This document shows positions 3,022 to 18,735 of a stretch of 64,000 bases of DNA, piece after piece. The DNA is from Patescibacteria group bacterium UBA6489. GTDB taxonomy: Bacteria; Patescibacteriota; Gracilibacteria; BD1-5; UBA6164. The position numbers were made by a program, and so were the translations under genes. Within the stretch, counting starts at the first letter, position 1; every line of letters starts with the position of its first letter. The stretch is from the NCBI GenBank assembly GCA_002435385.1, contig DJMN01000007.1, forward strand, positions 10,695 through 74,694. Direction: 5' to 3'. Under the pieces are notes generated by a model. The model saw only the letters and a program-made list of their open reading frames with translations, did not search any database and was not told the DNA's origin.

Positions 3022-3098
3022 GCGGGTGTAGCTCAATTGGCTAGAGCATCTGCCTTCCAAGCAGAGGGTTGTGGGTTCGAGTCCCATCACCCGCTCCA
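3022..3098 (+). tRNA. tRNA-Gly (anticodon UCC)
   Basis: Hand-folded cloverleaf: acceptor gcgggtg/cacccgc, anticodon stem tctgc/gcaga, loop cTTCCaa, T-loop ttcgagt, encoded CCA. Confidence 0.9.
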
Positions 3099-3193
3099 TT
3101 TTCTTAGAAGATAGGAGTGAGTAAAAGTAGAAAGTAGAAAGTTTAGAACAGTACTTTCTAATAGAAATCTACTTTTTTTTGTTTATCTTCTTT

Positions 3194-3270
3194 GGGCGTA
3201 TAGCTCAGCTGGTTAGAGCGCACGACTGATAATCGTGAGGTCGGTGGTTCAAGTCCACCTATGCCCACCA
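3194..3270 (+). tRNA. tRNA-Ile (anticodon GAU)
   Basis: Acceptor gggcgta/tatgccc, anticodon stem cacga/tcgtg, loop ctGATaa, T-loop ttcaagt, encoded CCA. Confidence 0.9.
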
Positions 3271-3368
3271 TTTTAAGTTTCTCTTACGATAAGCGATAAC
3301 GAATCGGAAGGAAAGTTACATCGAGTAAACAAATGCGAATGAGATGGAGAGAATAACTATATTTTTTT

Positions 3369-3445
3369 CGGGAACTGGCGCAATCGGCTAGCGCACACGC
3401 TTTGGGAGCGTGGGGTTAAGAGTTCGAGTCTCTTGTTCCCGACCA
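3369..3445 (+). tRNA. tRNA-Pro (anticodon UGG)
   Basis: Acceptor cgggaac/gttcccg, anticodon stem cacgc/gcgtg, loop ttTGGga, T-loop ttcgagt, encoded CCA. Confidence 0.9.
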
Positions 3446-3643: not shown

Positions 3644-3796
3644 ATGAATAAAAGTTACACAAAAAAATGTAAAAAATTTAGTTCATCAGAAATCAAAAAA
3701 GATTGATTTAAAAGATGAAAACAAAGATATAAATGTAAGTGTTGCTGACATGTATTTCAAAATAAAACAAGGAAAGCAAAGAATAGATATAAATAA
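3644..3796 (+). CDS. zinc-ribbon ORF of the IS (InsA-like N-terminal module), overlaps the transposase frame
   Basis: The 50-aa ORF contains ...GKQRYKCKCCGHVF, the QRYxCxxC motif typical of IS1/IS1595 transposase N-termini. It is offset +1 relative to the DDE frame. Confidence 0.4.
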
Positions 3797-4580
3797 GCTG
3801 TATAATAATTATTGTTTATGAAAACAAACCTATGAACAACTATCAGAAACATACTGAATATCAATAAAAACAGTTCAATCTAAACTAGATAAATATCAGA
3901 TACAAATACCACGAGTAAAAGTTCAAGAAGTAATTTTAGTAATAGATACAACATACTTTGGAGAATTTTGAGTTATGGTATTTAAAGATGCTTACAGAAA
4001 TAAAAATCTGCATATAAATATAGTAGATAGTGAGAATAATACTGATTACAAAAACTGAGTTAGAGAACTAGAAAAAGCTCGATGGATAATTAAAGCTATA
4101 GTTTGTGATTGAAGAAGATGATTACTTACTTGATTTGATAATATTCCTACTCAGATGTGTGATTTTCATCAAGTAGCGATAGTAAGAAGATATATAACTA
4201 AGAAACCTATTTTAGAAGCAAATAAGGCATTAAATTGGATAGCTAGATTACTTGTTAATACAGACAAAGAAACTTTTACTTATTATTTAGATTTATATTG
4301 AGAAAAATACTGAGATTTTCTTAAAGAAAGAAAATTAAATTCTAAGTGAAAACTTGAGTATATTCATAAAAGAACTAAATCTGCTTATTTTTCTTTAAAA
4401 AATAATTTGAAATATCTATTTACTTATTATGATTATATGTGACAGATAGATATTCCAAATACTACTAACTGATTAGAATGAATTTTCGGTCATTTTAAGG
4501 CTAATGTTAGCTTACATAGATGATCAAAAAAAGAGAGAAAAATTAAATTAATTTTATCTCTTTTATACGGAAAAATTTAA
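3750..4580 (+). CDS. DDE transposase (HTH + DDE; IS1/IS1595-like)
   Basis: With TGA=Gly: HTH QTYEQLSETYGISIKTVQSKL, VLVIDTTYFGEFGVMVFKD, IVCDGRRGL and NTTNGLEGIFGHFK (D, D, E region). It has many in-frame TGA, so it is adapted to the host code. The frame is also open upstream to 3633. Confidence 0.65.
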
Positions 4581-4625
4581 ACTTCTCAGCCACTCATTTT
4601 TTTCTATTATGCCAAACAAATCAAC

Positions 4626-4659
4626 AAAAAACTCACTAGTATCACTAGTGAGTTTTTTA
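4626..4659. terminator. bidirectional terminator between the IS and the island
   Basis: aaaaa-actcactagt-atc-actagtgagt-tttttt: perfect 10-bp stem flanked by an A-run and a T-run. Confidence 0.7.
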
Positions 4660-4672
4660 TATTTTACTCCTT

Positions 4673-6289
4673 TTATGTTAAATGTTTGTATGTAGAATAC
4701 TCAACTGCATGACGAGTTTGCTCTTTGCGGGCATCTTCAGCAATCAAGAAATTCACATTTTGCATGACGTCTGAGAGGTTTACATCTTCAGGGGATTCGC
4801 TAATGGCTCTTTCAGCAGCAACCTCAGCAATTGCATCGCGTAGGTTACTATTTGAAAGACCATGAGTTACGTCCAGAAATTTATCTTTTTCAGAGTTGTG
4901 AACCACTATGTCAAAGTGGTCAAACATCCTTTTAATAAATTCCCATTTATCATCCCCATCCAAATCAAGAATTGGAATTTTGATTTCAACACGACGTTGG
5001 AAATCGGTAGGTAAGTTTTGAGGACGTGAGGTATTAAAAACCCAATGGATTTTACCTCTATCACTATCGTCTCCCATCCAATCTAGTAATACTCCCATCA
5101 GTTCACGGTCAGTTTGATGATTATTATCATTTTCTGGATCAGCAAACATTGTGTCTGCTTCGGTTTTGACCAAAATCACCTTTCCAAAGCTTCGTACAAT
5201 CCGCTTCAATTTCTCTACAATTTCAAGGGTTTCTCCATACCATTTAGATTTGAGATTCCCTATTTTTAATGCAGGAAGATGGACTTCATGGATAAAAGCT
5301 TCAAGAATATAATCTTTTCCAACACCAGTTGGCCCAGTAAACATCAAACCTTTCCATATGAGCTTTTTATCACTTAAAAACATTCGTTTTTTCAGTTTAT
5401 CCAGCTCTTTTTTTATTTTTTCATATCCGATTACTGCATCATATCCATGACTAGTTTCCATTACAGAAACTTTTCCAGCCATATTCCTTGATATGATTGT
5501 TGAAACCTCATTACTAATATTTTCCTTAATACTTGAGCTATCTTCCTTGAGAATTGATTTTAAATTCGTCAAAGATATACCAGCAGATAGTAAGGAAATT
5601 TCAGCTATGAGTGCTTGATCAAACTCTCTATGATATTTTTCTGAAAAATATTCAATAAATCTGAGTCTTTCCAGTTGATCAGGGAGATTGAGTTCGATAT
5701 TTTCAAGGGTTGGAATATCTCTGATATCCTCATTGAGCGCGTAGAAATTTTTTGACAGCATAACAACCATGTTATTACTTGATACGAAATCTGAGCTTTC
5801 AAAAATTTCTCGTGCAGAAGAAATAATGAGTTTTTCATCCAAACCCATCTGATTGATGGGTTTGTTTGGAAAAATGATATCAGCATCTTCGATGATGATA
5901 ATCAGGTTTTTTACGTCTTTTTTCAGCTTTTTAAGTCTTGCATACTCCTCTAGAAGGGTTTTAATATGGTGAAGTCCAGAAACAATGTTATACTTTGAAT
6001 CAGCATAATCAAGACCAAAAATGAGCTTGTGTTTTTGTTCCAAGTCTTTATCATATGAGAAAAATTCTTGTTTATGGTAATCGCTTGAATAGCGAAAACC
6101 ACGAGATGGAGAATATAATACAACATGATTATTTTCTCCAAACTTTTGAACAAGAAGTTCACTTGGTTTATTTTCAGATATTTCATTGTTTTGTTCAACG
6201 AGGATAATATCTGAGATATTTCCAGTGACAGTAAAAATGTTACTAATATTTTTACTGTATAGATCAATAAGGTTTTGTAAAAAATTCAT
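4673..6289 (-). CDS. tandem AAA+ ATPase, classic (Vps4/Cdc48-like) clade, with non-canonical Walker motifs
   Basis: 538-aa TGA-free ORF. The C-terminal module has GPTGVGKD, LKSKWYGET, VILVKTEAD and NTSRPQNLPTDFQRRVE. The N-terminal half looks like a degenerate AAA domain (TGNISD, NLIIIIEDAD, IELNLPDQLERL). GGAG lies 8 nt upstream. TAA stop. Confidence 0.75.
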   Translation of the reverse strand: MNFLQNLIDLYSKNISNIFTVTGNISDIILVEQNNEISENKPSELLVQKFGENNHVVLYSPSRGFRYSSDYHKQEFFSYDKDLEQKHKLIFGLDYADSKYNIVSGLHHIKTLLEEYARLKKLKKDVKNLIIIIEDADIIFPNKPINQMGLDEKLIISSAREIFESSDFVSSNNMVVMLSKNFYALNEDIRDIPTLENIELNLPDQLERLRFIEYFSEKYHREFDQALIAEISLLSAGISLTNLKSILKEDSSSIKENISNEVSTIISRNMAGKVSVMETSHGYDAVIGYEKIKKELDKLKKRMFLSDKKLIWKGLMFTGPTGVGKDYILEAFIHEVHLPALKIGNLKSKWYGETLEIVEKLKRIVRSFGKVILVKTEADTMFADPENDNNHQTDRELMGVLLDWMGDDSDRGKIHWVFNTSRPQNLPTDFQRRVEIKIPILDLDGDDKWEFIKRMFDHFDIVVHNSEKDKFLDVTHGLSNSNLRDAIAEVAAERAISESPEDVNLSDVMQNVNFLIAEDARKEQTRHAVEYSTYKHLT

Positions 6290-6305
6290 ATTATTTTCTC
6301 CATTT

Positions 6306-6323
6306 CCCCATCATATGATGGGG
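6306..6323 (-). promoter_or_regulatory. perfect 18-nt palindrome just upstream of the AAA+ RBS
   Basis: ccccatcatatgatgggg. On the minus-strand mRNA it follows a U-run and lies 16 nt before the ATG, so it may be an intercistronic stabiliser or processing hairpin. Confidence 0.4.
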
Positions 6324-6339
6324 AAAAAAAGTGGTTGAG

Positions 6340-7242
6340 TTACTTCGCTGATTTGATGCTATCAGGATGATTGAGACTAAAATCCGATACCGGTTGTCTT
6401 ACATCTTCCTGGAAACACTCATAATCAGCCTTTTTTATCCATGTTTCCGTTTCTGGATGAAACATTCTGTCGCGCATGGATATCTCTTGACCCAAGAGTG
6501 GGTGAGCTTCATCAAAGGCAATTTTTGCACCTATATGCTCACCACCGTCATAATATCTGGTGAGAGCAATAAGTCGTGTTGCCAGTGCTGGAACATCTCC
6601 ATTGAGGTCGTGAGTCACAAACAATACAGTAATATTATGTTCGTGTTGGATTTTAACCAGACTTTTTCTGAGATCCATTTTGGTAATAGGATCGAGAGCA
6701 GAAAATGCTTCATCCATCAAAATCACTTTGGGTTTCATGATTAGTGCCGCAACGATGGCAACCCTCTGTTTTTGACCACCTGAGAGTTCAAAAGGATATT
6801 TATCCGCATGTTTTTCCATGTCAACCATTTTCAGGTATTCCATAGCTTGCTCGCGTACTTGCCTCATATATGGAGTATGAAGTTTGAAAAAGCTAAGTAT
6901 GTCATAGAAAACATTTTGGACGAATGGAGTGGAATCAAGAATAACCCCCTGCATTATATTTTGAACTGCTGTCATATTGGGAAACAAGGAATAGTCTTGT
7001 GGAACATAACCAATATGCCTATTTGGACCTTTTAGCAGATCTTCATCTACATGTATGAGACCTGAGATAGGCTTTTCTACACCAAGGATTTGGCGTAGAA
7101 GTGAAGATTTTCCAGCACCAGATGGACCAACGATACAAACAAGCTCTCCTTCACGAACATCTAGGTTAATATCATGAAGGATTACTTTTTCACTGTAAGT
7201 GACGTTCATGCCTCTTACTTTGATAAGAACATCTTTTTCCAT
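6340..7242 (-). CDS. ABC transporter ATP-binding protein (NitT/TauT family-like)
   Basis: GPSGAGKSS (Walker A), LSGGQKQRVAIVAAL (signature), ILMDEAFSALD (Walker B), VTHD (H-loop), and a C-terminal extension of about 60 aa. TAA stop. Confidence 0.9.
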   Translation of the reverse strand: MEKDVLIKVRGMNVTYSEKVILHDINLDVREGELVCIVGPSGAGKSSLLRQILGVEKPISGLIHVDEDLLKGPNRHIGYVPQDYSLFPNMTAVQNIMQGVILDSTPFVQNVFYDILSFFKLHTPYMRQVREQAMEYLKMVDMEKHADKYPFELSGGQKQRVAIVAALIMKPKVILMDEAFSALDPITKMDLRKSLVKIQHEHNITVLFVTHDLNGDVPALATRLIALTRYYDGGEHIGAKIAFDEAHPLLGQEISMRDRMFHPETETWIKKADYECFQEDVRQPVSDFSLNHPDSIKSAK

Positions 7243-7248
7243 AGATAT

Positions 7249-8166
7249 TTACCCCTTTTGATACCAGCGATACTTATACTTGATGACTAACTCAATACCA
7301 AAATAAAAAATCAAGGCAAGGATCGTAACAATCAAAATATAAGGTATGATGATATCATGTGCCATAAAACGTTTCAGAAGAAAGGTTCGAAAACCTAAGC
7401 CAGCTTGAACCCCAAGTGTTTCAGCAAAATATACACCAACCCAAGCCATAGGGAGACTCATTTGAAGTGATTTCAATATACCTGGGATAATCATTTTAAA
7501 ATTCCCCTTGGCAATTTCGAGTTCACTGGCTCCTTTGGTAAAGAATTGGGTATTCAGATTGAGAGGAATTCCTTTGAGTTGATGTACTATATCTTTAGTT
7601 AAAACAAAAAACAAAAAGATAAAGATGATTACTACTGAAAGTTCAAATCCAGGAGTAAAAGCAACAAAAAGGAGTGGAACAGTTGCAGGCGGAGGGATAA
7701 TACTTGCAATATTTATCGTGGGCATGATTATCGCCTCGATAATTGGAAAAGTTCCTGCAAGGATTCCAAACAGTATTGCTACTGCTGTGGTAATCAAAAT
7801 TCCAGAAACCAAAATATTCAAAGATGATTTTACATCAGTAAAAGTTTTTGGCTCACCAGTTTTTCTATCATTTTTTGTTGAATACTCAACAATCCCATCC
7901 CACATTCTTGAATAAGTAGGTAAAATCTTGTAAAGAGATCGTACCTCTTTTTCATAAGCTGTTAATTCTTGTCTTGGTTTATCAATAGCATTGTTATATA
8001 CTCCATCAATTTCCATAGACTTGAAGTGATACCACGATATAATGAGTACTATTGGTAATAACCCAAGTAGTACTTTTTGCCATAGTAGTAGCTTAGCCCT
8101 ATTACCAATAATATATCTCACTTTTGTTTCTCCGAAAATGAAAAGGTGGAGGTTTAAACCCTCCAC
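7249..8166 (-). CDS. ABC transporter permease (NitT/TauT family-like)
   Basis: Multi-TM ORF 6 nt upstream of the ATPase gene. The ORF-track start at 8166 is GTG and lies inside a hairpin. A likelier start is GTG 8121, preceded by GGAG. Confidence 0.8.
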   Translation of the reverse strand: MEGLNLHLFIFGETKVRYIIGNRAKLLLWQKVLLGLLPIVLIISWYHFKSMEIDGVYNNAIDKPRQELTAYEKEVRSLYKILPTYSRMWDGIVEYSTKNDRKTGEPKTFTDVKSSLNILVSGILITTAVAILFGILAGTFPIIEAIIMPTINIASIIPPPATVPLLFVAFTPGFELSVVIIFIFLFFVLTKDIVHQLKGIPLNLNTQFFTKGASELEIAKGNFKMIIPGILKSLQMSLPMAWVGVYFAETLGVQAGLGFRTFLLKRFMAHDIIIPYILIVTILALIFYFGIELVIKYKYRWYQKG

Positions 8167-8167
8167 C
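8145..8167 (-). terminator. intra-operon attenuator/terminator hairpin between the binding-protein and permease genes
   Basis: ggtggagg-tttaaac-cctccacc (8-bp GC-rich stem). On the minus strand it is followed by cttttcattttc. Confidence 0.5.
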
Positions 8168-8197
8168 TCTTTTATTACACGAAACGATATAACCTAC

Positions 8198-9220
8198 TTA
8201 CTCTACGTCGAATTTGACGGTAACAGGAGCAGACATATCGCCACCTTTGTTTCCATGCAGCTCATAAGCTGCTTTTGACTTGAATTCAGAGAAAAACCCA
8301 TAATCCTTAGCCAGTTTATAGGTATCTTCCTGAAATTTGGGGAAATCCCCTTGGTAGAATGCCATTTCCTCATCAGGAGTAAAGATTTTACTTCCACCCA
8401 ACATAGTTTTGACTTCACCTAGGCTATTCCCAGTTTTATTCATGATCTCCAACATCAATGAATTGTATTCATCACCACGACCAGACAGAATCACGGAAGC
8501 AGTTTTATCCCACAATGCACGCAGGAATTTTGCCTTGTGGTCAAAATCATCCACATCAGTTCCCAATGCAATCATATCGATAATGGTTTTGGGAAATTCA
8601 GCGGATGTTCCAGCCATGTTTCCTTCAGAGCTGTAGGCAGTATCCAAGGCAGGATTCCATGTGACAATATTGTCATATTTCCCTGCCAAATAACCAGACA
8701 GTAACACCGAATCTGCATCCACATGAATCAGGTTGAAATCCTTTTGGGGATCAAGTCCCATGGATTTTGCCTTTTCGATGAAAAGCTGTTCAGAGATGCT
8801 TGCTCGAACCATGTATACATCCTGTCCCTTGATATCATTCAAAGAGCTCCCATTTCTGAGTATAATACCATCATTACCAGCAGAATAATCTTGCAAGACA
8901 ATGGCGGTCATGTTACGACCAGAAAGGGCTAGCATTTGGTCCAGGTTGGTTACTGTTACTGCATCAACAGCAGCAGTACTGGCCATTGCCAGAGACTGTA
9001 GATAGTCGGGTTGATGGTTGAGGCTCAGCTTACATCCGTATTGTCTCTCAATGTCATTATAGAGCCCCGCATTCTGAGCTGCATCAATTGCAACCCAGTT
9101 TATATACAGGCTTGTACTCAAGCTTACATCACAAGTGTTTGCAACGACCGATGATAGTCCCACAACGACCGATGACAATCCCACAACAATAGAAATTACA
9201 ATTTTTACAAATTGTCTCAT
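8198..9220 (-). CDS. periplasmic substrate-binding protein, SsuA/TauA (NMT1-like) family
   Basis: Signal peptide. NDGIILRNGSSLNDIKGQDVYMV...LIHVDADSVLLSGYLAGKYDNIVTWNPAL matches the NitT/TauT binding-protein pattern. AGGAG RBS. TAA stop. Confidence 0.75.
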   Translation of the reverse strand: MRQFVKIVISIVVGLSSVVVGLSSVVANTCDVSLSTSLYINWVAIDAAQNAGLYNDIERQYGCKLSLNHQPDYLQSLAMASTAAVDAVTVTNLDQMLALSGRNMTAIVLQDYSAGNDGIILRNGSSLNDIKGQDVYMVRASISEQLFIEKAKSMGLDPQKDFNLIHVDADSVLLSGYLAGKYDNIVTWNPALDTAYSSEGNMAGTSAEFPKTIIDMIALGTDVDDFDHKAKFLRALWDKTASVILSGRGDEYNSLMLEIMNKTGNSLGEVKTMLGGSKIFTPDEEMAFYQGDFPKFQEDTYKLAKDYGFFSEFKSKAAYELHGNKGGDMSAPVTVKFDVE

Positions 9221-9274
9221 CTTTTTCTCCTACTAGAGTCGTAAAATGTTAATGACCAATACTATAACTATTTT

Positions 9275-9287
9275 GGCTATAATAGCC
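9275..9287. promoter_or_regulatory. 13-bp palindrome (candidate operator) at the predicted transcription start of the ABC operon
   Basis: ggctat-a-atagcc, immediately downstream of the -10 box. Confidence 0.35.
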
Positions 9288-9293
9288 TTCTAT

Positions 9294-9321
9294 ATAATAG
9301 ATGGAAAAAATAAAAAGTCAA
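9294..9321 (-). promoter_or_regulatory. sigma70-type promoter of the ABC/AAA+ operon
   Basis: Minus strand: TTGACT (9321-9316), 16-nt spacer, TATTAT (9299-9294). Confidence 0.5.
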
Positions 9322-9497
9322 TTTTTTTTTCAGTTCTATTGTAGTAATCCTTCTTTTCAGATTTAGCGATAACGGTATCTGGAGTTTTTTTTATGGCTAT
9401 TCAAATCAAAAGGCTGTTTGTGAAGACGGATAATCTTTTCTTCATTGCTCTTCTATATATCAACTTATTGTGGCTTTGTTAAATCATAATTGAAGAT

Positions 9498-9532
9498 AAA
9501 AAAAGGCACATGGGGTTTCCATGTGCCTTTTT
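9498..9532 (-). terminator. rho-independent terminator after the pspA-like gene
   Basis: ggcacatgg-ggttt-ccatgtgcc, followed on the minus strand by a T7 run. Confidence 0.75.
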
Positions 9533-9575
9533 CGCTCTCCTTTTTTTACGATTTTGTTTTGTTTGGGTTTTAGAC

Positions 9576-10376
9576 TTAGACTTTTCGCTCAGTCTCAGAA
9601 ATTTCCTCTACAGGTACGGTAGAACCTGCTTTTTTTGCCTTGTTTGCAGCAGCACGCTCGGCAAGTATTTTCTGGAGTTTATCGTTTGAAGCGGAGCCTT
9701 TGACTCTATTTTTGTAACGCTTCATACGATTATCCATATTGGTACCAGATACCTCCTTAGCTACGCTAAGTTCAGCTTTTTCTTGTGCCAGTTTTTGCCT
9801 TACAGCAGAGACCGCACTCATATCATCAGATTGCATCAGACCAGAACGTTCCGCTTCTACATCCTTCCTAAGACGTACGATTTCCATTTGGGCAACCGTA
9901 CTTTCCGCCTCTTGTTCGAGACCACGGATCTCTTCCGATAGATCCCTCATGACAGCTACATACTCTTCCTTATCAGCATTAAGAGCCTCAATATTTGAGG
10001 CTAATGATTCCTGCTCTGAATCAATTGCTGTTTGGCGAGCATCCAGACGGTTGAAATCTTCCAAAAGTTCAGCATTTTCAGGGTCTTCTTCAATTTCTTG
10101 AATAAGACCTTCGATTGCTTCCCCCAGTTCAGCTTCTTCATCACTGAGCTCTTTCAATTTCAATTCCAGTTGACTTTGCTCCATCTGAATGCGACCAACC
10201 GCCGTTTTGATGTTGTTAAATCTTTCGATTTTATCATCTTTGGCTTGGTTGTACGTAGCCCTGATAGCATCTGGACTAGAAGTCTGGGCTGCCTTGATGC
10301 CTTTGTCCATCTTGTAGGTACCAATGCTCAGTACCCACATAGCACCACGAAAAATAGTTTTGAAAAAACTAGCCAT
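9576..10376 (-). CDS. pspA: PspA/IM30 (phage-shock protein A / Vipp1) family coiled-coil protein
   Basis: 266 aa starting at MASFFKTIFRG (amphipathic N-terminus). SPDAIRATYNQAKDDKIERFNNIKTAVGRIQMEQSQLE followed by long heptad-rich helices. The ATG overlaps the upstream TAG (ATGGCTAG). GGAG RBS. The ORF track extends the ORF to 10421. Confidence 0.6.
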   Translation of the reverse strand: MASFFKTIFRGAMWVLSIGTYKMDKGIKAAQTSSPDAIRATYNQAKDDKIERFNNIKTAVGRIQMEQSQLELKLKELSDEEAELGEAIEGLIQEIEEDPENAELLEDFNRLDARQTAIDSEQESLASNIEALNADKEEYVAVMRDLSEEIRGLEQEAESTVAQMEIVRLRKDVEAERSGLMQSDDMSAVSAVRQKLAQEKAELSVAKEVSGTNMDNRMKRYKNRVKGSASNDKLQKILAERAAANKAKKAGSTVPVEEISETERKV

Positions 10377-11217
10377 GTTTTTCTCCATACTTTTGATAAA
10401 GGTTTTTGAGATTTTGCTCATCGCTCATGCTAAATCGATTGAGTCTTGCTTGAACTTGTTTCGATGCTTCAACAGCTAAAGTAAGCTCATCTGAATTTCG
10501 GTTCACTATATTTTGTGAATCAAAACTTGATGTTGCTGAAGCTAGATTGAGTTCACTGGATTGGAACGACAAGATAAGCTTTTGAAGGACAGAGGTCAGT
10601 TCAGAAATTTTTTGTTCATTACTGTTGTAAATCCCAATATTTTTCTGAATGATAGCTCTGTTTTCTTTATCAGCTTTACTTAATTGCCTTTCTAACTTCG
10701 AAAGACTGGTTTTGCTTTGAATGACTTGTAAATCGGCAATCTCCTTTAAAAGGTTTACGCCTGAATGAAAACCTTGATCGGCTTTCGATTCAAACTCATA
10801 AAAAAGCTCTTCAGATATGATTTCCTGATCCCTGATGGCATGAACAAACGATTGATACGAATTCCAGAGGTCTTTTTTGAGTTTTTCACCACCTTTTAGG
10901 TTGTATAACTCAATTTCATTGAACTCTGCCCTTCGCTTTTCTTTCATCTGTTCTTTATGCCAATCTTGGTATATCAGTGCACCTTCCTTGGCTATTTCTT
11001 CAGCATTAGCTATCCGATACCACCAAAATGATGTACCGAGGATACCAAGAGGAATCAGTGAAAAAATCTGAAAAAAGGATGGTATACTACTCAAAGCTAT
11101 CCCTAGAGGGGTAGCTATAAGGCTGACAAGACCAAAGAGAGTGAGCGGACTACGTTTAAATTTCTCCTTCACATAGTTATGTGCAAACTCTCTTGCTTCC
11201 TCTAAGTAGCTGGACAC
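10369..11217 (-). CDS. 2-TM hairpin membrane protein with long cytoplasmic coiled coil (putative PspA partner)
   Basis: GTG start with GGAG 8 nt upstream. Two hydrophobic helices (LTLFGLVSLIATPLGIALSSIPSFFQIFSLIPLGILGTSFWWY) followed by about 190 aa of helical sequence. Translationally coupled to the pspA-like gene. Confidence 0.6.
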   Translation of the reverse strand: MSSYLEEAREFAHNYVKEKFKRSPLTLFGLVSLIATPLGIALSSIPSFFQIFSLIPLGILGTSFWWYRIANAEEIAKEGALIYQDWHKEQMKEKRRAEFNEIELYNLKGGEKLKKDLWNSYQSFVHAIRDQEIISEELFYEFESKADQGFHSGVNLLKEIADLQVIQSKTSLSKLERQLSKADKENRAIIQKNIGIYNSNEQKISELTSVLQKLILSFQSSELNLASATSSFDSQNIVNRNSDELTLAVEASKQVQARLNRFSMSDEQNLKNLYQKYGEKHG

Positions 11218-11239
11218 ATTGTTTTCTCCGTAAGGTTAG

Positions 11240-12823
11240 TTAGTAGTCAATGAACATAATCTCAACTGTATTGTTATCATTGATGTAGTTTCCATAACTT
11301 TGTCCAGCTTTTTTAGCAGGAGTCATAGTAGAACCAACACCAATTGATGAAATACGATTTGGATCGATTTGGTAGTACTTTTGTAGGTATTTATATACCC
11401 GATCAGATTTTGCCTGAGTCCTTTGTTGTATAACTTCTTCGTTAATTCCGCGTATTTGCGCAGATTTTCCAACGATAGCGATATAATAGTCAAAGTTCCC
11501 AATTTGCTGCTGTGCAAAGCGATCAAGAATTGCTTTCGCATTGTTATCCAATTTTCCATCACGAAGAAATGTTATCTTCAAGTCATCACGAGTGAATTTT
11601 GGATTCCTAATAAGTTTACGCCAAGTCGATTCTTGGAGTTTTGTGTAAACTCTTGCTTCTGCTGCAGGCTTTTTTATGGCATCATCTGGATACGAGTTAA
11701 ACACACCCCTGAGTACTTTGTCATAAACAATGGATCTTGAGTCACCATTTGGAAGCGGTGATTCAGGAATTGCATCCATTTTTATCAGTTTAATGACAAT
11801 AGCATCAATATAGTCTAAGACTTTTCCTTCAGATGAAGAATTCGCCCTGAAAAGTGTGTAACTGTTATCGGCAAGGTTGTAAAAATGAACACCTGCTAAG
11901 TTTTCGGCTATCTCAATTTGATCTCGAGCATCTTTACCTCCACCTTCGGTAAGTTCAATTTCACTATACAGTTCTGTTGGGTTGTTAGCGTAATAGCTAA
12001 CAGACTCATAGTAGCTGTATAGCATGTTTTGTATGCTTTCCGGTTTTTCTAGCAGAACACCCCTGTTTACAACGTATACATCAACGATTCTTGCAAGTTT
12101 CAGTTCATTGGATCCCATTAGCACTTCATAACCTTGTTTTTTAGCTCTTGAAATGTATGGTTCCCATAGTCCTGCTACTTTACATTTATCACTGAGTAAG
12201 TCGGCGTAGGTTTGTTCAATATCTTCATTTGCTTTTCCTTTCAGAAGAATAGGAAGCCCTGTGTCTACTGCCATGCTTCCAAGCATGAAACGAGATGTAT
12301 AACAGGAATCAACTTTTAAAAGTCCTTTTAAATCATTGATGCTTTTGAAGTTTTTCGGGTCTGCAAGTACTGCATCAGATCCTGTTGACCAGGATATTGC
12401 TGCAACAATCACAGGAGCTTTGCTTGTATCTACCCCAAGATGATAGAGCTGCTCCAGATAATCATGAATAGGCATTACTGCAAAATCATATTCACCTGAA
12501 ACAAGTTTTTTCACCCGAGAAGGATAATCTCCTTTATCATCGATAAAGTTGAGAGCTAACGATTTTTTTTGAAGCTCGAATTTGAATCTCTTGCTTCTCA
12601 AAATCGCATATCCGTCATAGCCATCACCAGCACCATTGAGTATTGTTTCCTCTTTAGATGACTGGGTTAGCTTTGCGATTTTTTCCTGCTTTCTATCTTC
12701 ACCAACCTTATCAAAGACGCCTTTGTAGTCCAGAAAAGCAACAATACTGGCAATGATAGCTGTCCAAACAAGTATGGGAAAAATATACTTATTTCGTGAA
12801 GAACCGGTAGATGGCCCATTCAT
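11240..12823 (-). CDS. membrane-anchored SsuA-like binding domain fused to an OmpA-like peptidoglycan-binding domain
   Basis: N-terminal TM (YIFPILVWTAIIASIVAFL). Central NMT1/SsuA-like region (STGSDAVLADPKNFKSINDLKG...GLWEPYISRA). C-terminal OmpA-like region (YYIAIVGKS...RTQAKSDRVYKYLQ...RISSIGVGSTMP). The likely start is the 2nd ATG (12823) after GGAGG. The ORF track starts at 12835. Confidence 0.6.
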   Translation of the reverse strand: MNGPSTGSSRNKYIFPILVWTAIIASIVAFLDYKGVFDKVGEDRKQEKIAKLTQSSKEETILNGAGDGYDGYAILRSKRFKFELQKKSLALNFIDDKGDYPSRVKKLVSGEYDFAVMPIHDYLEQLYHLGVDTSKAPVIVAAISWSTGSDAVLADPKNFKSINDLKGLLKVDSCYTSRFMLGSMAVDTGLPILLKGKANEDIEQTYADLLSDKCKVAGLWEPYISRAKKQGYEVLMGSNELKLARIVDVYVVNRGVLLEKPESIQNMLYSYYESVSYYANNPTELYSEIELTEGGGKDARDQIEIAENLAGVHFYNLADNSYTLFRANSSSEGKVLDYIDAIVIKLIKMDAIPESPLPNGDSRSIVYDKVLRGVFNSYPDDAIKKPAAEARVYTKLQESTWRKLIRNPKFTRDDLKITFLRDGKLDNNAKAILDRFAQQQIGNFDYYIAIVGKSAQIRGINEEVIQQRTQAKSDRVYKYLQKYYQIDPNRISSIGVGSTMTPAKKAGQSYGNYINDNNTVEIMFIDY

Positions 12824-12845
12824 GATTACCTCCATAAAGGGTTGA

Positions 12846-12874
12846 GAAGGACTCCTAAACTTCAGGAGTCCTTC
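12846..12874 (-). promoter_or_regulatory. intercistronic hairpin (11-bp stem)
   Basis: gaaggactcct-aaacttc-aggagtccttc, between the vWA stop and the next start. No U-run follows. Confidence 0.4.
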
Positions 12875-12880
12875 ATGGGG

Positions 12881-13519
12881 TTAAAAGTCTTGCACGACGA
12901 ACTCGGAACTTCCAGGTACCTCAGCCTTGATTGCCTGTTTAAGGGCATTCGTTAGCTGTTGAGTTGATGAAGCATCGGCAAAGTCGGTTACTTGCATCAA
13001 CTTATGCCTAGTAATTCCAAACCCAATGGTCTTTATATTGATTCCACTTGCAATTGCTTCGTCAACGGCGTTAAGCATACGTTCTTCTTTGTCTGCCGCA
13101 CCATCAGTTACAACTACAATGGTATAAAAACCATATCCACCTTGCGATTGTTTCTGCTGATCCAAGTACTGTTTTACAGCCAGGATAGCAGGACCGATAG
13201 GAGTACCCCCACCAGCCTTCAATTGATTTACAGAATTAATAGCATCTTGTTTCTTACCCATTATATTCTGTAGTTGAACAATATATCCATGATTGAGAGC
13301 ATAAATACCAAAATTGTAATCATCTGGTATCCCTTGAATCAGCTGAACCACAGATTCTTTTGCTTGATCAAGCTTGCTTTTCCAAAATATGGATCCCATA
13401 CTTCCAGAATCATCAAAGATAATGACTACGTTCTTTCTCAGGTTAAGGTCTTCTTCCGCTGTGGCCGTAAACGGTAAGTAAAGGATTCCCAAGAAGATAA
13501 AAATCCAAAATTTATTCAT
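12881..13519 (-). CDS. secreted von Willebrand factor type A (vWA) domain protein
   Basis: Signal peptide. Intact MIDAS residues: VVIIFDDSGSMG (DxSxS), GGGTP (T), VVVTDGA (D). GGAGGAG RBS. Ends ...EFVVQDF. Confidence 0.85.
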   Translation of the reverse strand: MNKFWIFIFLGILYLPFTATAEEDLNLRKNVVIIFDDSGSMGSIFWKSKLDQAKESVVQLIQGIPDDYNFGIYALNHGYIVQLQNIMGKKQDAINSVNQLKAGGGTPIGPAILAVKQYLDQQKQSQGGYGFYTIVVVTDGAADKEERMLNAVDEAIASGINIKTIGFGITRHKLMQVTDFADASSTQQLTNALKQAIKAEVPGSSEFVVQDF

Positions 13520-13533
13520 TTTTTATCTCCTCC

Positions 13534-15252
13534 TTAGAAGTCTTGAACGGCTTCAAATGATTGAATTTCCGCGTTATAATTGGTTACGTTAAACTCAACA
13601 CGGATATTGCTATCAAATTCGGCTTGGTTTTTCGGACGTTCGTGAATAGGGCTTCCTGCTCCATCACCATGAACAACGAGTTTATAGGCCTGCAAGTCAA
13701 TCTTGTTTGCGATTGCATAATCAACAATAGCTGCCTTAACAGCATTTGCACGTTCCTTTGAAGTGCGTTCAGCTGCATTTTGGACGTTGTTACGTTCCAT
13801 GGTAATGCGTTGGATAGACATCTGAGCCAGATTGTAGTTGCTTTTCAACACTTTGTTGAGATAAGCTTCCACTTTCATAAGTCCAGTGTTATTTCCACTT
13901 TTCTTAAACTCAATTGCCTTATTCCACCCACGCAGTAGGGATGGATCAACATGACCCACAATATTTAGAACTGCACCAGGATAGGTATTGGCATAGTTTA
14001 TTACTGCATCGAAATTTTTTCCATATTCGCTTACAGTGAAACTATTTTGGTTGGGCTCAAACAGAATTTTGTCTGAAAAAAGTACTTGACCTTGTCCAGA
14101 CTTTTTCAGTTCGGATACTTCTTGCTCAATTCTGGCAGTCACCTCTTTATCTGCCTGTAGGACATGAGCTTCCTGTGATACTTTGACATTCCAGTCAGTC
14201 ACAGGAATATTCAGATCTCCATTAGAAACCAATCCCACTTTTTTGAACTCACCAACGATTCTTGCAACTTTCCGAGGAAAGTTGTTTGGGTTGGTAGGTG
14301 AGTACATAAAGTTGTTACTTATTTCCATGTTATGGAAACGGGCATCGTCACGCAAGCCTTCAGTATCAGCAATATTCTGATGACTTGCGCTTCCGAACAT
14401 AATGGTTGCAGCCTCTTTTACGAGATTACCATCCAATAGTTTGGTTTTTGCAGCACTCAAAAAACCCTCACGGATTTTTTTCAGCTGAGCTTTGTTGTCC
14501 TTTGCCCAATCGGAACGAACCAAGATGATATCCTTGATTGATTCGTTCATTGCCTTGGTTGTAACCAGTATAGACAGACCAGGTATTGCGGCCGTTCCCT
14601 CAGTGAGGGTGGCAGCACTTGGACTGATGACGAAAGCCATATCAATAGATTGATCTTCAGCAATAGCAGTTTCTGGTGAATCATCACCAAAAAGGTTTGG
14701 CAGATATTTGATGTTTATATCCGTAATCGAAAGACCATTCTTTGTCAACAAATCAACCAGCCATCCCATATGGGGGCCGCCATACTGAATGGCAACCGTA
14801 ACGGTTTTACCACCTTTAACTGCAGTAACAAATTCATTGATGTTGTTAAAGCTACGAGTAACCACAACATCCCCACCATTAGAATCGGTCACAGAATGGA
14901 AAATTTCCATTTTAACACCTACCGATTGCAAAGCATCAACAAGCATTGTACCAGAGCCCACCGTTTGGCGAATAAACGGAGTTTTACCGGAGATGACATT
15001 CTTGATTTGCTCAAGAGGATCATCAACCAGCTTTACACCGCCAGGAAACAAGGATATGTTTCCTAATGCCAGAATCATATCTCCCCAGGTAATACCTTGG
15101 TAGATATAATCCTTTGATACGGGTTGGACGGATACTCCTGATACCTGTTGGTAAAAAGGAGTTGGCGAGATGTAATTGACAGCCTTAGCATTTGTCATAC
15201 CTATAAATATTGTTAGTAAAATAACAATACTAAGAATTCCATGTTTTTTCAT
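13534..15252 (-). CDS. secreted SsuA-like binding domain fused to a C-terminal OmpA-like domain
   Basis: Signal peptide MKKHGILSIVILLTIFIGMTNA. Central binding-protein-like fold (TVAIQYGGPHMGWLVDLLTKNGL...). C-terminal ILFEPNQNSF...LNIVGHVD...ERANAVKAAIVDY...GDGAGSP. Ends ...FEAVQDF. Confidence 0.6.
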   Translation of the reverse strand: MKKHGILSIVILLTIFIGMTNAKAVNYISPTPFYQQVSGVSVQPVSKDYIYQGITWGDMILALGNISLFPGGVKLVDDPLEQIKNVISGKTPFIRQTVGSGTMLVDALQSVGVKMEIFHSVTDSNGGDVVVTRSFNNINEFVTAVKGGKTVTVAIQYGGPHMGWLVDLLTKNGLSITDINIKYLPNLFGDDSPETAIAEDQSIDMAFVISPSAATLTEGTAAIPGLSILVTTKAMNESIKDIILVRSDWAKDNKAQLKKIREGFLSAAKTKLLDGNLVKEAATIMFGSASHQNIADTEGLRDDARFHNMEISNNFMYSPTNPNNFPRKVARIVGEFKKVGLVSNGDLNIPVTDWNVKVSQEAHVLQADKEVTARIEQEVSELKKSGQGQVLFSDKILFEPNQNSFTVSEYGKNFDAVINYANTYPGAVLNIVGHVDPSLLRGWNKAIEFKKSGNNTGLMKVEAYLNKVLKSNYNLAQMSIQRITMERNNVQNAAERTSKERANAVKAAIVDYAIANKIDLQAYKLVVHGDGAGSPIHERPKNQAEFDSNIRVEFNVTNYNAEIQSFEAVQDF

Positions 15253-15332
15253 GGTTGTTTTCTCCAGTTTAAAATTTCTGAGAATGTTAACGAGCGTACT
15301 AAGATACTAAGGATTATTTCTTAGATTTTTAA

Positions 15333-15360
15333 AATATAAAAAATAAATACAAAATGTCAA
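15333..15360 (-). promoter_or_regulatory. sigma70-type promoter of the five-gene pspA module
   Basis: Minus strand: TTGACA (15360-15355), 16-nt spacer, TATATT (15338-15333), about 80 nt upstream of ATG 15252. Confidence 0.5.
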
Positions 15361-15660
15361 GATAAAATGGGAAGAATTTTTCACGAAATGCAACTTTTAC
15401 ATTTTTATATGTCAATTAAACTCCTCTATCTCAGTTCTAATCCTCTACTATATGACTTACTTGAACAAGAACATAAATTTCTCATGATTTTTTTGAGATG
15501 AATATGAAGAGGAATTTAATGGCGAGTGATGGTTTTTCTATAAAGAAATACTTGATTTTACAATTGAGAGATTTGATCCTCATATGCATAAATGTATACA
15601 AAAATTGAAATTAAAATCTAATTTTTAAATTTTCACAAAAATCACTATTGAAAAATTAGA

Positions 15661-15696
15661 AAAATAACTACAAAATATTTATCTTGTAGTTATTTT
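15661..15696. terminator. orphan terminator-like hairpin in the noncoding tract
   Basis: aaaataactacaa-aatatttatc-ttgtagttatttt. Confidence 0.4.
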
Positions 15697-15749
15697 TTGA
15701 TTCCAAAAATTTTTAAATATAGTACAATTATATAATTAAAAAAAATAAA

Positions 15750-15989
15750 ATGGATAATATTAATAAATTTTCTGTTGCTGATATAATAAACATAATACAT
15801 CAGATAATTATTATATTATATTTATTATATTCACTAAAGATAATCTATAAATACTTTAAGTATAATAAAAAACGAAATTTAATATGATTAATAAAAAAGT
15901 TAGCCATAGTTTTCCTATACTATGTACCAGTTTCTATATTATTTTCAATTATTGAATGGTGGTTATTATCTTGTAGTATGTGTATATAG
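15750..15989 (+). CDS. possible small membrane protein (79 aa)
   Basis: ATG..TAG in frame with one read-through TGA. Hydrophobic. No homology recognised. Lies in an otherwise noncoding AT-rich tract. Confidence 0.2.
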
Positions 15990-16745
15990 ATTTTTCCATA
16001 TTAACTGATAACAAAAAATAGAAAATATTCTATAAAGAATCTTTTCAAATTAAAAATTTCGTGAAACAATTTCAGAATTATTACTAAATTTTCCTACTAA
16101 AATAATAAAAAAAATATTTTACATAATAACTATATACTTAACTAAGTTTTTACCCAATTTTTGATGTTCAGAACTTTTGATCATAGGTGTTCACTATATT
16201 TAATCATTATAGTCAATAAAATAATTAGCATTGTCATATTTTGCAGGTATAATATTTTTAATATCAGTATAAATCACAATAAAAAAAGTCAGAGTAAATT
16301 ATTTTCAATTTTTTGACCTTTTTTATTATTAAAAATATTGCATACTAGAAATAATTGGCATTTTTGACTATAGAAAAATTTATTCTATCAATATTCCGAC
16401 TTTCACGATTTTACAAAACAAAAAAATAATTCATATTTAAGGTATGTAATTCAAAATATTCTTAGGAGTTTTAGAGTTTATTACTTGAGATTGAAAACTC
16501 TAAATCATATATTCTCAACTCCTTATAGTGTTTTAATTTGATTATTCCAGTATTGTAGCTTCTTTTCTTATCTCAAAGGAGGAAAATTCAAGAGATAAGG
16601 GATAATTATATGGAGAGTTTAATTTTAAGTACTAAAAAATTAGAAAAAATTATAAGACAAAACTATTTATTGATTTTTCTTGAAAAATAAGATAAAATAA
16701 CATTGAGATAAAAAAGATTTATTATCATTTATAATACACAAAAAG

Positions 16746-17300
16746 ATGTTAAACAGAGCATTAAAAATTCTGGTATATACTAACTCAATGACACTATTAG
16801 CAGCTGCAATGTTAGCTCCAATTTATGCAATATTTGTTGAAGAAGTTGGATGAGATCTAATGGATGCAAGTATTGCTGGAGGTATATTTGCTTTAGTTGC
16901 AGGTATAACAACAATAATAGCTGGTAGATGGACTGATAAAATAAAGGAAAAGAAATTAATTATTATCCTTTGATATATTATCATGGGAATAGGTTTCTTA
17001 TTATATTTTTGGGTAGATTCAGTTATTTTCTTATTTATAGTCCAGTCTATTATTTGACTTGGAGAAGCTGTTTATTCTCCAGCATTTGATGCTCTATTCT
17101 CTAAAAATCTTGATAAAAATAAATCTGCCACTCAATGGTGAGCTTGGGAATCAACCTTCTATTTTACAACAGCAATATGAGCAGTTAGTGGTGGATGACT
17201 TGTTACCTTATTTGGTTTTCAAGCTTTATTTGTAACAATGGCTATAATGTGTTTTGGTAGTGCGTTATATCTTCTATTCTTAAAACAAGGAGAGATATAA
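16746..17300 (+). CDS. half-size (6-TM) MFS-type transporter-like protein (184 aa)
   Basis: With TGA=Gly: AGRWTDKIKEKK, GLGEAVYSPAFDALFSK, and six hydrophobic segments. Only about half the length of a canonical MFS protein. Confidence 0.5.
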
Positions 17301-18186: not shown

Positions 18187-18735
18187 ATGACAAAAGTAAC
18201 TTTTATTACAGGAAATCAGGGGAAAGCAGATTATTTATCTAAATACCTTGGTTATCCAGTAGACCACATAAAACTAGATTTAGATGAAATCCAATCAATA
18301 AATTTAAATGAAATTGTAGAACACAAAGTCCTACAAGCCTATAAAAAAATAAACAAACCAGTTATTGTTGAAGATGTTTCATTAGAATTTGAAGCCTTAG
18401 GAGGTTTACCATGACCATTTATAAAGTTTTTTCTAGAAAACAACTCATTTGAAACAGTTTGTTCAATGATTAGTAAGGATTTAACAAGAAATGCAATAGC
18501 TAAATGTGTCTTTGGTTATTTTGATGGTGTAGATTTAAAATTATTTGAATGAAAACTTGATTGAGAAATTGCAAAGGCTCCAGAAGGGGATAATGGTTAT
18601 GGTTGGGATAAAATCTTTATTCCTAAGGGATATTCAGTAACAAGAGCATCTCTTAGTGAAGAAGATGACAAAAGAACATATCTAAAATTAAAGCCATTTG
18701 CAGAGTTAAAAGAGTTTTTAGAAGGAAAGAAATAG
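18187..18735 (+). CDS. rdgB: non-canonical purine NTP pyrophosphatase (ITPase, HAM1/RdgB family)
   Basis: FITGNQGK, EDVSLEFEALGGLPGPFIKFF (the Gly of PG is encoded by TGA 18412-18414), GYGWDKIF. Confidence 0.85.

Follow-up and report, generated by a model that had tools for sequence, protein, structure and literature searches.

The subject of this report is a set of nine genes (g1 to g9), all located on the minus strand between positions 4673 and 15252 of a 64,000-nucleotide stretch from the Patescibacteria group bacterium UBA6489 (contig DJMN01000007.1). This whole stretch is called the window, and all coordinates follow its numbering unless another locus is named. The nine genes constitute an envelope module which is organised in two transcripts. 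It combines a putative PspA/IM30-like protein (g5) and a tandem AAA+ protein (g9) with two binding proteins fused to OmpA-like domains (g1, g3), a secreted vWA protein (g2), a membrane protein with two transmembrane (TM) segments (g4) and the parts of an ABC importer of the NitT/TauT family (g6 to g8). The explanation we favour, tentatively and at slightly less than an even chance, is that the cassette encodes an ATP-regulated, PspA-based device for membrane remodelling or repair, which would be coupled to wall-anchored solute sensing and to NitT/TauT-type import.

Studying the occurrence of these genes reveals that they belong together. A search with g3 returned 20 full-length relatives among 5.8 billion proteins, and in every long contig examined among these relatives all nine genes are collinear. 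In total the nine-gene order is present in eight further distinct loci at 22-68% identity, which come from Campylobacterales, from two other genomes in which the codon TGA is recoded, and from a distant lineage. These loci are an ENA metagenome contig (L001), a 724-kb genome contig (L002), a metagenome-assembled genome labelled 'bacterium' (L003, which equals L007), two loci of Sulfurimonadaceae (L004, which equals L006, and L009), one of Campylobacterales (L008), the closest relative of the window copy (L010, with a g3 that is 68% identical) and the distant lineage (L012/L013), which shows 22-40% identity and a GC content of 44%. The g5 homologue P0002 (34% identical) lies on a contig with the nine genes in the same order and a gap of about 14 bp between g5 and g6. 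A Sulfurovum contig (L005) ends after g6. The genes flanking the cassette are different at every locus, and in most of them they are housekeeping genes. A preliminary description of this DNA, made from the letters alone, had named as a point against itself that the gene order might occur nowhere else. Because the same genes stand in the same order in eight further distinct loci, a chance juxtaposition is excluded. The scan of metagenomes yielded extra copies only of the Campylobacterales type and none of the clade from recoded hosts, and no relative of the cassette was found in viral contigs.

The preliminary description had proposed a unit of five genes, g1 to g5, enclosed by one promoter and one terminator. 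All of these elements were found in their places, including an overlap between g4 and g5. The conserved unit, however, consists of nine genes, and the description had stopped at an internal terminator (T1), thereby omitting g6 to g9. As the latter four genes possess their own promoter-like site (P2) and are followed by a bidirectional terminator (T2), the window holds two transcription units. All features are listed in Table 1. The structure of T1 is GGCACAUGG-AAACC-CCAUGUGCC-U7. In front of the first unit a GGAG ribosome-binding site lies about 10 nt 5' of the g1 ATG. Matches to a sigma-70-like promoter occur in this region at chance level, with 30 found and 27.5 expected from shuffled sequences. 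In most other loci g6 to g9 start about 14 bp after g5. In the window the spacer between g5 and g6 (9221-9575) measures 355 bp and contains the terminator and the promoter-like site, compared to about 14 bp in the Campylobacterales copies. The corresponding spacer of the closest relative (L010:8820-9477) harbours two small ORFs, one of them prepilin N-methyl-like.

Table 1. Genes, signals and extent of the cassette in the window.
Feature	Position	Strand	Description
P1	15333..15360	-	promoter-like site TTGACA-16-TATATT upstream of g1; 11/12, top match of the scan; consensus match only
g1	13534..15252	-	572 aa; secreted NMT1/SsuA-type binding domain and OmpA-like domain
g2	12881..13519	-	212 aa; secreted vWA protein with complete MIDAS (metal ion-dependent adhesion site)
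g3	11240..12835	-	531 aa; N-terminal TM anchor, TauA/SsuA-type binding fold and OmpA-like domain
g4	10369..11217	-	282 aa; 2-TM hairpin and cytoplasmic helical domain of ~215 aa
g5	9576..10376	-	266 aa; probable divergent PspA/IM30 (ESCRT-III superfamily) protein
T1	~9498..9540	-	intrinsic terminator after g5; dG -29.1 kcal/mol, z = -10
P2	9294..9321	-	promoter-like site TTGACT-16-TATTAT upstream of g6; consensus match only
g6	8198..9220	-	secreted NitT/TauT-family substrate-binding protein
g7	7249..8166	-	ABC permease, TauC/SsuC/NtrB type
g8	6340..7242	-	ABC transporter ATPase
g9	4673..6289	-	tandem AAA+ protein, N-domain degenerate
T2	4624..4660		bidirectional terminator after g9
Island	4600..15400		GC-rich, without TGA codon; 36-40% GC vs 25.6% in flanks; coextensive with the nine genes

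The central protein of the proposed device is g5. Judged from profile comparisons and from a structure model, it is a divergent member of the PspA/ESCRT-III superfamily which falls outside the limits that Pfam sets for the family. An exhaustive HMMER search with a profile of g5 and P0002 yielded 156 representatives, mostly of 250-290 aa and with end-to-end alignments. Among 126 aligned relatives, 32 match the Pfam family PspA_IM30 (best 1.3e-20). In addition, four of the ten closest outgroups, which are related to g5 with E-values of 1e-21 to 1e-25, show near-full-length matches to PspA_IM30 that stay below the threshold (1e-4 to 1e-7). The pooled, broad profile matches Vipp1 of Nostoc (6zvr) over the full length at 4e-19. 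In an hhalign comparison of the nine g5 orthologues with Vipp1 the C-terminal half is in register, and the g5 block GL..S.DMSAV.AIR is aligned to Vipp1 GMNTSSAMSAFERME; this match is weak (E 9e-4, probability 23%). The AlphaFold2 (AF2) model of g5 (pLDDT 80) comprises an N-terminal helix (residues 2-31), a hairpin of two long helices (35-97 and 102-180, 63 and 79 residues) and two further helices (189-208 and 231-251). It thereby shows the fold of the PspA/ESCRT-III type, in which an amphipathic helix at the N-terminus precedes the long alpha1/alpha2-3 hairpin and helices alpha4 and alpha5. When this model was submitted to Foldseek, Vipp1 accounted for most of the top 10 matches, with PspA lower in the list. 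The C-terminal part of g5, the region in which an ESCRT-III protein has the MIM-type motif recognised by its ATPase, carries a conserved basic helix (KLQxILAxRxAxxKA) and a near-invariant end of the type ER-x-[VLI].

The gene upstream, g4, encodes a protein with a 2-TM hairpin (about aa 26-66) and, C-terminal to it, a long tail of helices. It overlaps g5 by 8 nt, ATGGCTAG, given the 266-aa form of g5. The start of this form (MASFF) is backed by the alignment of the orthologues, and a 281-aa reading from 10421 is open as well. Overlap or abutment of g4 and g5 is seen in the window and also in L001, L003, L004, L008, L010 and L013, and by its arrangement g4 is predicted to be translationally coupled to g5. 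We also considered whether g4 itself could be a Snf7-type or PspA-type protein. No support for this was obtained: nine orthologues gave no Pfam Snf7 match at E<1, two profiles searched against the PDB gave no match to an ESCRT-III protein, and hhalign against the PspA-like profile returned a probability of 1%.

The last gene of the cassette, g9, encodes a tandem AAA+ protein. Residues 280-520 represent an AAA domain of the classical clade (Afg2 7e-13), which is also matched by VAT, katanin, fidgetin, Vps4 and Msp1, and the best NCBIfam match is CdvC (2e-10). Invariant in this active domain are the lysine of the Walker A motif (GxTGxGK), the pore loop SKW[YF]GET, the catalytic glutamate and a pair of arginines (RR). 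The pore loop is of the KW-x-GE type, which we take to resemble pore loop 1 of Vps4 (Vps4/fidgetin-type). The N-domain is degenerate: its profile comes closest to archaeal Vps4/CdvC (4e-3, over Walker B and lid), and the Walker A motif of this AAA domain is replaced by TGNIxD.

In agreement with the preliminary description, the predicted topology places g1, g2 and g3 outside the membrane and g4 and g5 on the cytoplasmic side. It had further described g1 and g3 as fusions of SsuA-like and OmpA-like domains, and this is borne out for both proteins by different means. For g1 a signal peptide is predicted, and its orthologues match both NMT1, with scores that exceed the threshold in L012 and L013, and OmpA at corresponding positions. 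The g1 profile matches the OmpA-like domain of A. baumannii at 2.6e-4. The residues known to bind peptidoglycan by its peptide stem are kept in g1: the aspartate of the GHTD motif (D436) and the arginine of the RA motif (R501) are invariant in eight orthologues and aligned to their counterparts in 3td3. In the case of g3, for which the likely true start is Met5 at 12823, the AF2 model (pLDDT 83.5) shows a TM helix and then a binding fold closest to TauA/SsuA/ThiY. The best Foldseek match of this fold is TauA (6ssy; 1.9e-13, TM-score 0.80). The C-terminal domain of the g3 model is OmpA-like, with the succession beta-alpha-beta-alpha-beta-beta, and co-aligns with a chain of 540 residues that was deposited under the name 'TssL periplasmic domain'. 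Distant orthologues of g3 have kept GHTS...R and pass the threshold of Pfam OmpA. The binding proteins g1, g3 and g6 have a fold class in common, without detectable sequence similarity. A recent duplication as origin of g1 and g3 was rejected (BLAST E 1.0, hhalign probability 3.7%), as was a relationship between the g3 family and g6 (hhalign probability 0.7%).

The vWA protein g2 (Pfam VWA 2e-13) passes the cutoff of the Pfam profile vWA-TerF-like with 31.9 bits (cutoff 29.4). Its MIDAS of the form DxSxS...T...D consists of D36xS38xS40, T106 and D139. These residues are invariant in 10 orthologues, and the vWA protein with an intact metal site that had been postulated from the letters is confirmed. 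In one copy of the distant lineage (L012:2481-3389) the vWA gene is split into two ORFs, and it is intact in a near-identical cassette (L013:2129-2806). The C-termini of g1 (13534-13545) and g2 (12881-12892) have a common tail, ...F-x-x-x-Q-D-F-COOH, which is found across orthologues; g3 ends with ...FIDY. The QDF tail may serve both proteins for docking or sorting, or it may supply an acidic ligand to the metal site of the vWA protein.

Concerning the transporter, g6 is closest to the binding proteins of the urea-carboxylase-associated type (TIGR03427 1.3e-38), where its 133 bits lie below the cutoff of 333.9, and its orthologue in L013 matches NMT1/NMT1_2. None of the importer-family members of the cassette reaches an equivalog cutoff. 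The signal peptide of g6 contains a 21-nt tandem duplication (9142-9183), resulting in VVGLSSV-VVGLSSV.

Two variants of the cassette deviate from the common pattern. In a Sulfurovum-type locus (L016:1-21569, JGI Ga0256845_1000469) g1 to g6 are kept and g7 and g8 are inverted, and genes for Eco47II restriction-modification, AbiTii and AAA_15/DUF3226 lie between these two and g1. The assumption that the AAA+ gene always accompanies the PspA-like gene was rejected, as this locus has no AAA+ gene within 21.5 kb. The second variant is carried by six Vibrio megaplasmids, for instance pSEA2 of Vibrio alfacsensis (NZ_AP019851.1, L015:229984-249375). Here the order is ABC ATPase, g1-like protein, vWA protein, a binding protein fused to an OmpA domain (Pfam OmpA 3.8e-17), a 257-aa membrane protein, TelA, urea-type binding protein and permease. 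Thus orthologues of g8, g1, g2, g3, g4 (the latter by position), g6 and g7 are found in almost the same order as in the cassette. The differences are that the slot of g5 is occupied by a true TelA (Pfam 4.3e-50), that the gene of the ABC ATPase has moved upstream and that an AAA+ gene is lacking. Homology between TelA and g5 was considered and rejected (hhalign probability 2.8%). That the same slot can hold either a PspA-like protein or TelA, two distinct helical stress proteins, suggests that the conserved outer and transport parts act in envelope stress or in the response to toxic anions.

According to the preliminary description the combination of genes matched no described system. This claim fails, because Ravi et al. 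2024 (mSystems, PMC11237479) already report such operons from comparative genomics. These consist of PspA, a protein with an inactive AAA+ and an AAA domain, an ABC ATPase, a permease, and proteins of the architectures SIG+PBPB+OmpA and SIG+TM+Snf7, the example being OGG56892.1 from Candidatus Handelsmanbacteria. The same authors note that bacterial PspA is sometimes accompanied by a protein in which an inactive AAA+ domain precedes a second one, and propose an ATP-dependent membrane remodelling tied to solute transport (PMC11237479). This proposal agrees with the explanation favoured here and speaks for it independently. The cassette of the window is a richer, differently ordered version of this operon type. 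Common to both are the PspA-superfamily protein, the tandem AAA+ protein with a dead N-domain, the ABC ATPase, the permease, a secreted fusion of a binding domain and an OmpA domain, and a membrane-anchored helical protein. Compared by the published description, the cassette has nine genes in another order. It adds the secreted vWA protein, a second, TM-anchored binding protein with OmpA-like domain and a free binding protein, none of which is named in the publication and its supplement (the latter with 0 occurrences of 'vwa'). Furthermore, a likeness of g4 to Snf7 was not detected.

The statement of the preliminary description that this is not a classical psp or lia operon can be upheld. The cassette resembles the systems of E. 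coli (pspF-pspABCDE) and B. subtilis (liaIHGFSR) in that it pairs an effector of the PspA family with a small, co-produced membrane protein assumed to recruit it (cf. PspB/C and LiaI), and a role in envelope stress is expected. Unlike in these systems, no PspB, PspC, PspF, LiaI, LiaF, LiaS or LiaR was matched by any of the nine proteins in Pfam or NCBIfam, the AAA+ protein belongs to the classical clade and is not an NtrC-type activator of transcription, and the cassette includes extracytoplasmic partners and a transporter. The similarity to the archaeal and eukaryotic ESCRT-III/Vps4 system (CdvB/CdvC) lies in a protein of the ESCRT-III superfamily encoded together with a classical-clade AAA+ protein whose best NCBIfam match is CdvC. 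It differs from this system in lacking a MIT domain, in the effector, which is of the PspA type and not of the Snf7 type, and in the tandem structure of the ATPase with a dead first domain. The proteins g6 to g8 are members of the NitT/TauT importer family (TauABC, SsuABC, the nitrate/bicarbonate system CmpABCD and the urea-carboxylase-associated transporter), as are g1 and g3 with respect to their binding folds. What sets the cassette apart from those importers is that g1 and g3 each combine such a fold with an OmpA-like domain, and that they are linked to PspA and AAA+ proteins.

The genome around the cassette uses a different genetic code. In the sequence outside 4600-15400, the share covered by ORFs of 100 aa or more is 17% with the standard code and 85% if TGA is read as a sense codon. 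The ORFs of the host contain 663 in-frame TGA compared to 256 GGN codons. TGA is found at positions of conserved glycines, e.g. ALGGLP-TGA-PFIKFF in the ITPase gene (18187-18735), and FolD, RimK and inositol monophosphatase score strongly if TGA is read as glycine. Because of this alignment of TGA to conserved glycines and the excess of in-frame TGA, we assign to the host genetic code 25, in which TGA stands for glycine and which is known to occur in Gracilibacteria and Absconditabacteria.

In contrast to its surroundings, the cassette (4673-15252) contains no TGA and 204 GGN codons, and all nine stop codons are TAA or TAG. Its GC content of 38% drops abruptly at either end to the 25.6% of the flanks, and it represents foreign DNA in its recoded host. 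The two other copies from hosts with in-frame TGA (L002:7519-18126 and L010:3154-14167) also have no TGA, compared to 191 and 197 GGN codons, and only TAA and TAG as stops, while in the Campylobacterales copies TGA terminates up to four of the nine genes. The three copies from recoded hosts form one clade with 61-66% identity, which is as deep as the Campylobacterales clade. The lack of TGA may reflect either three separate recent imports from unsampled donors with the standard code, or selection against TGA. At the island no flanking direct repeats above chance level and no integrase or att-like repeat were found.

The following scheme starts from what the sequence data show, namely which domains the proteins contain, their topology as predicted, and the conserved linkage and order of the genes; the contacts between the proteins, the nature of the ligand and the direction in which signals pass are inferred. 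The importer made up of g6 (the free binding protein), g7 and g8 would take up a small solute of the class related to nitrate, sulfonate, bicarbonate or urea. The wall-tethered binding domains of g1, which is soluble, and of g3, which is anchored in the membrane, may sense the same class of ligand or hand it over, and g2 may bridge both proteins via its metal site. On the other side of the membrane g4, presumably made in a fixed ratio with g5, would recruit g5 to the inner leaflet, where g5 might polymerise and thereby stabilise or reshape the membrane. Finally, g9 would spend ATP to remodel or dismantle the g5 polymer, as Vps4 does with ESCRT-III. The trans-envelope assembly of g1 to g5 that the preliminary description had suggested is plausible.

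Several observations speak against this proposed remodelling device, and the first of them concern g5. The window protein itself has no match to PspA_IM30 (PF04012) in Pfam at E<0.1 and none in NCBIfam, a phmmer search against the PDB returned only prefoldin noise, and the profile of the nine orthologues did not find PspA or Vipp1 in the PDB. The link between g5 and PspA is transitive, and the Foldseek E-values are weak (3e-3 at best), which is usual for helical hairpins. The PspA/IM30 assignment of the preliminary description holds at the level of the superfamily, on transitive profiles and fold, and not for the Pfam family. That description had itself stated that a 266-aa protein without a match to PspA/IM30 profiles would count against it. 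In Pfam such a match is indeed lacking, and only the transitive profile and fold evidence overturns this objection. A second group of observations concerns the proposed partners of g5. A relation of g4 to Snf7 or PspA is not detectable. In g9 (4673-5479 for the domain in question) the aspartate of the Walker B motif is replaced, the sequence being KTEAD in the window and KPEAD in Campylobacterales, and DEAD is found only in the distant L013; ATPase activity is therefore not assured. Neither Pfam nor NCBIfam identified a MIT domain in g9, whose N-terminal 270 residues are the degenerate AAA domain. The protein is also not specifically Vps4, as Afg2, VAT and katanin score equally or better, and at L016 there is no g9 gene within 21.5 kb. 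On the outer side, the OmpA-like domain of g3 lacks the canonical aspartate and arginine for peptidoglycan binding in the window and in the Campylobacterales clades (VGKS/VGRS, with Lys instead), with the fold retained. Last, the cassette and every member of it are known from genomics alone.

A more far-reaching interpretation joins the separate elements, and we regard it as possible but doubtful. Under it the cassette would be a true bacterial counterpart of ESCRT-III and Vps4, in which g4 as adaptor recruits a PspA-type polymer and g9 remodels it by means of its KW-x-GE pore loop. Through the wall, this machinery would be connected to proteins for ligand binding and metal-dependent adhesion, and the reshaping would thereby respond to what is sensed outside. 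In addition, the cassette would possibly be kept free of TGA, remain readable under the standard code as well as with TGA as glycine, and thereby serve as a code-neutral mobile unit between recoded episymbionts and Campylobacterota.

Among the alternatives, the one that holds up best places transport in the centre. Accordingly, the cassette would encode a specialised ABC uptake system of the NitT/TauT family, in which the wall-anchored g1 and g3 and the vWA protein would bind a scarce ligand close to the wall, and the PspA-like protein, g4 and the AAA+ protein would only assemble the transporter or protect the surrounding membrane. Of the nine proteins, four are regular components of importers or bear binding folds of the importer type. 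Moreover, the binding proteins, the vWA protein, g4 and the permease persist on the Vibrio plasmids without PspA or AAA+, and L016 lacks the AAA+ gene. However, ordinary importers of this family need neither g1 to g5 nor g9, the g4-g5 pair and g9 are kept across phyla at 22-68% identity, and the g5 slot is always filled by a helical stress protein, PspA-like or TelA. We consider this alternative unlikely.

Distinctly less can be said for a stress module of the toxic-anion or Ter type, which would detect and counter a harmful anion at the envelope with the PspA-like protein or TelA as cytoplasmic effector, and would thus belong to the wider field of tellurite and toxic-anion resistance (TelA, vWA proteins TerF/TerY). 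The position of TelA between the orthologues of g1-g4 and g6-g7 on the Vibrio plasmids agrees with such a role, as do the score of g2 above the vWA-TerF-like threshold and the fact that the family of the binding domains is one that binds anions (nitrate, sulfonate, bicarbonate). But TerD, TerC or any other Ter protein was found in none of the loci seen, and TelA has no detectable homology to g5. We judge this idea quite improbable; it overlaps with the proposed remodelling device and does not exclude it.

An anti-phage defence or abortive-infection system built on the AAA+ ATPase and the vWA protein might be suspected from the patchy distribution and horizontal mobility of the cassette, and from L016, where it adjoins restriction-modification and Abi genes. 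These genes, however, look like an insertion that splits the cassette. PADLOC found only generic ABC-ATPase/P-loop similarity for g8 and marginal similarity for g5 and g9, and called no system. Considering also the absence of copies from viral contigs, the housekeeping flanks in most loci and the secreted binding proteins, which are atypical of defence systems, this possibility is very slight. Finally, an assembly chimera or chance juxtaposition, which the sharp difference in GC content and codon usage between island and flanks might suggest, is practically negligible, as the gene order recurs in the eight further loci, a 14,764-bp contig from an independent assembly runs across both island junctions with 100% identity, and the two other TGA-recoded genomes hold the cassette in long contigs, one of them of 724 kb.

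The proposed remodelling device bears on the question whether bacteria own a Vps4-like partner for PspA. Such partners are stated to be absent from bacteria in two recent reviews (PMC7619361, PMC10936438). The cassette makes this question directly testable: it offers a putative PspA-superfamily protein hard-linked to a classical AAA+ protein with a substrate-threading pore loop, in the form of nine defined genes that occur in culturable Campylobacterota or, as the variant, on Vibrio plasmids. The coupling of remodelling in the cytoplasm to wall-tethered binding proteins and a vWA protein suggests an outside-in sensing route which is not known for Psp systems. Independent of the function, the three genomes which read TGA as glycine and carry a TGA-free cassette represent a clean case of gene flow across genetic-code boundaries.

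Some further features were observed in the vicinity of the island. A 276-aa ORF without a Pfam match lies beside it at 3750-4580, and three tRNA genes (Gly-TCC, Ile-GAT and Pro-TGG) are located at 3022-3445, 1.2 kb from its left end. At the other side, the region 15400-17300 includes a 1.3-kb non-coding stretch of 17-23% GC which adjoins the island. The ORF following this stretch represents only the N-terminal half of a major facilitator superfamily (MFS) transporter (Pfam MFS_1 positions 6-172 of 347).

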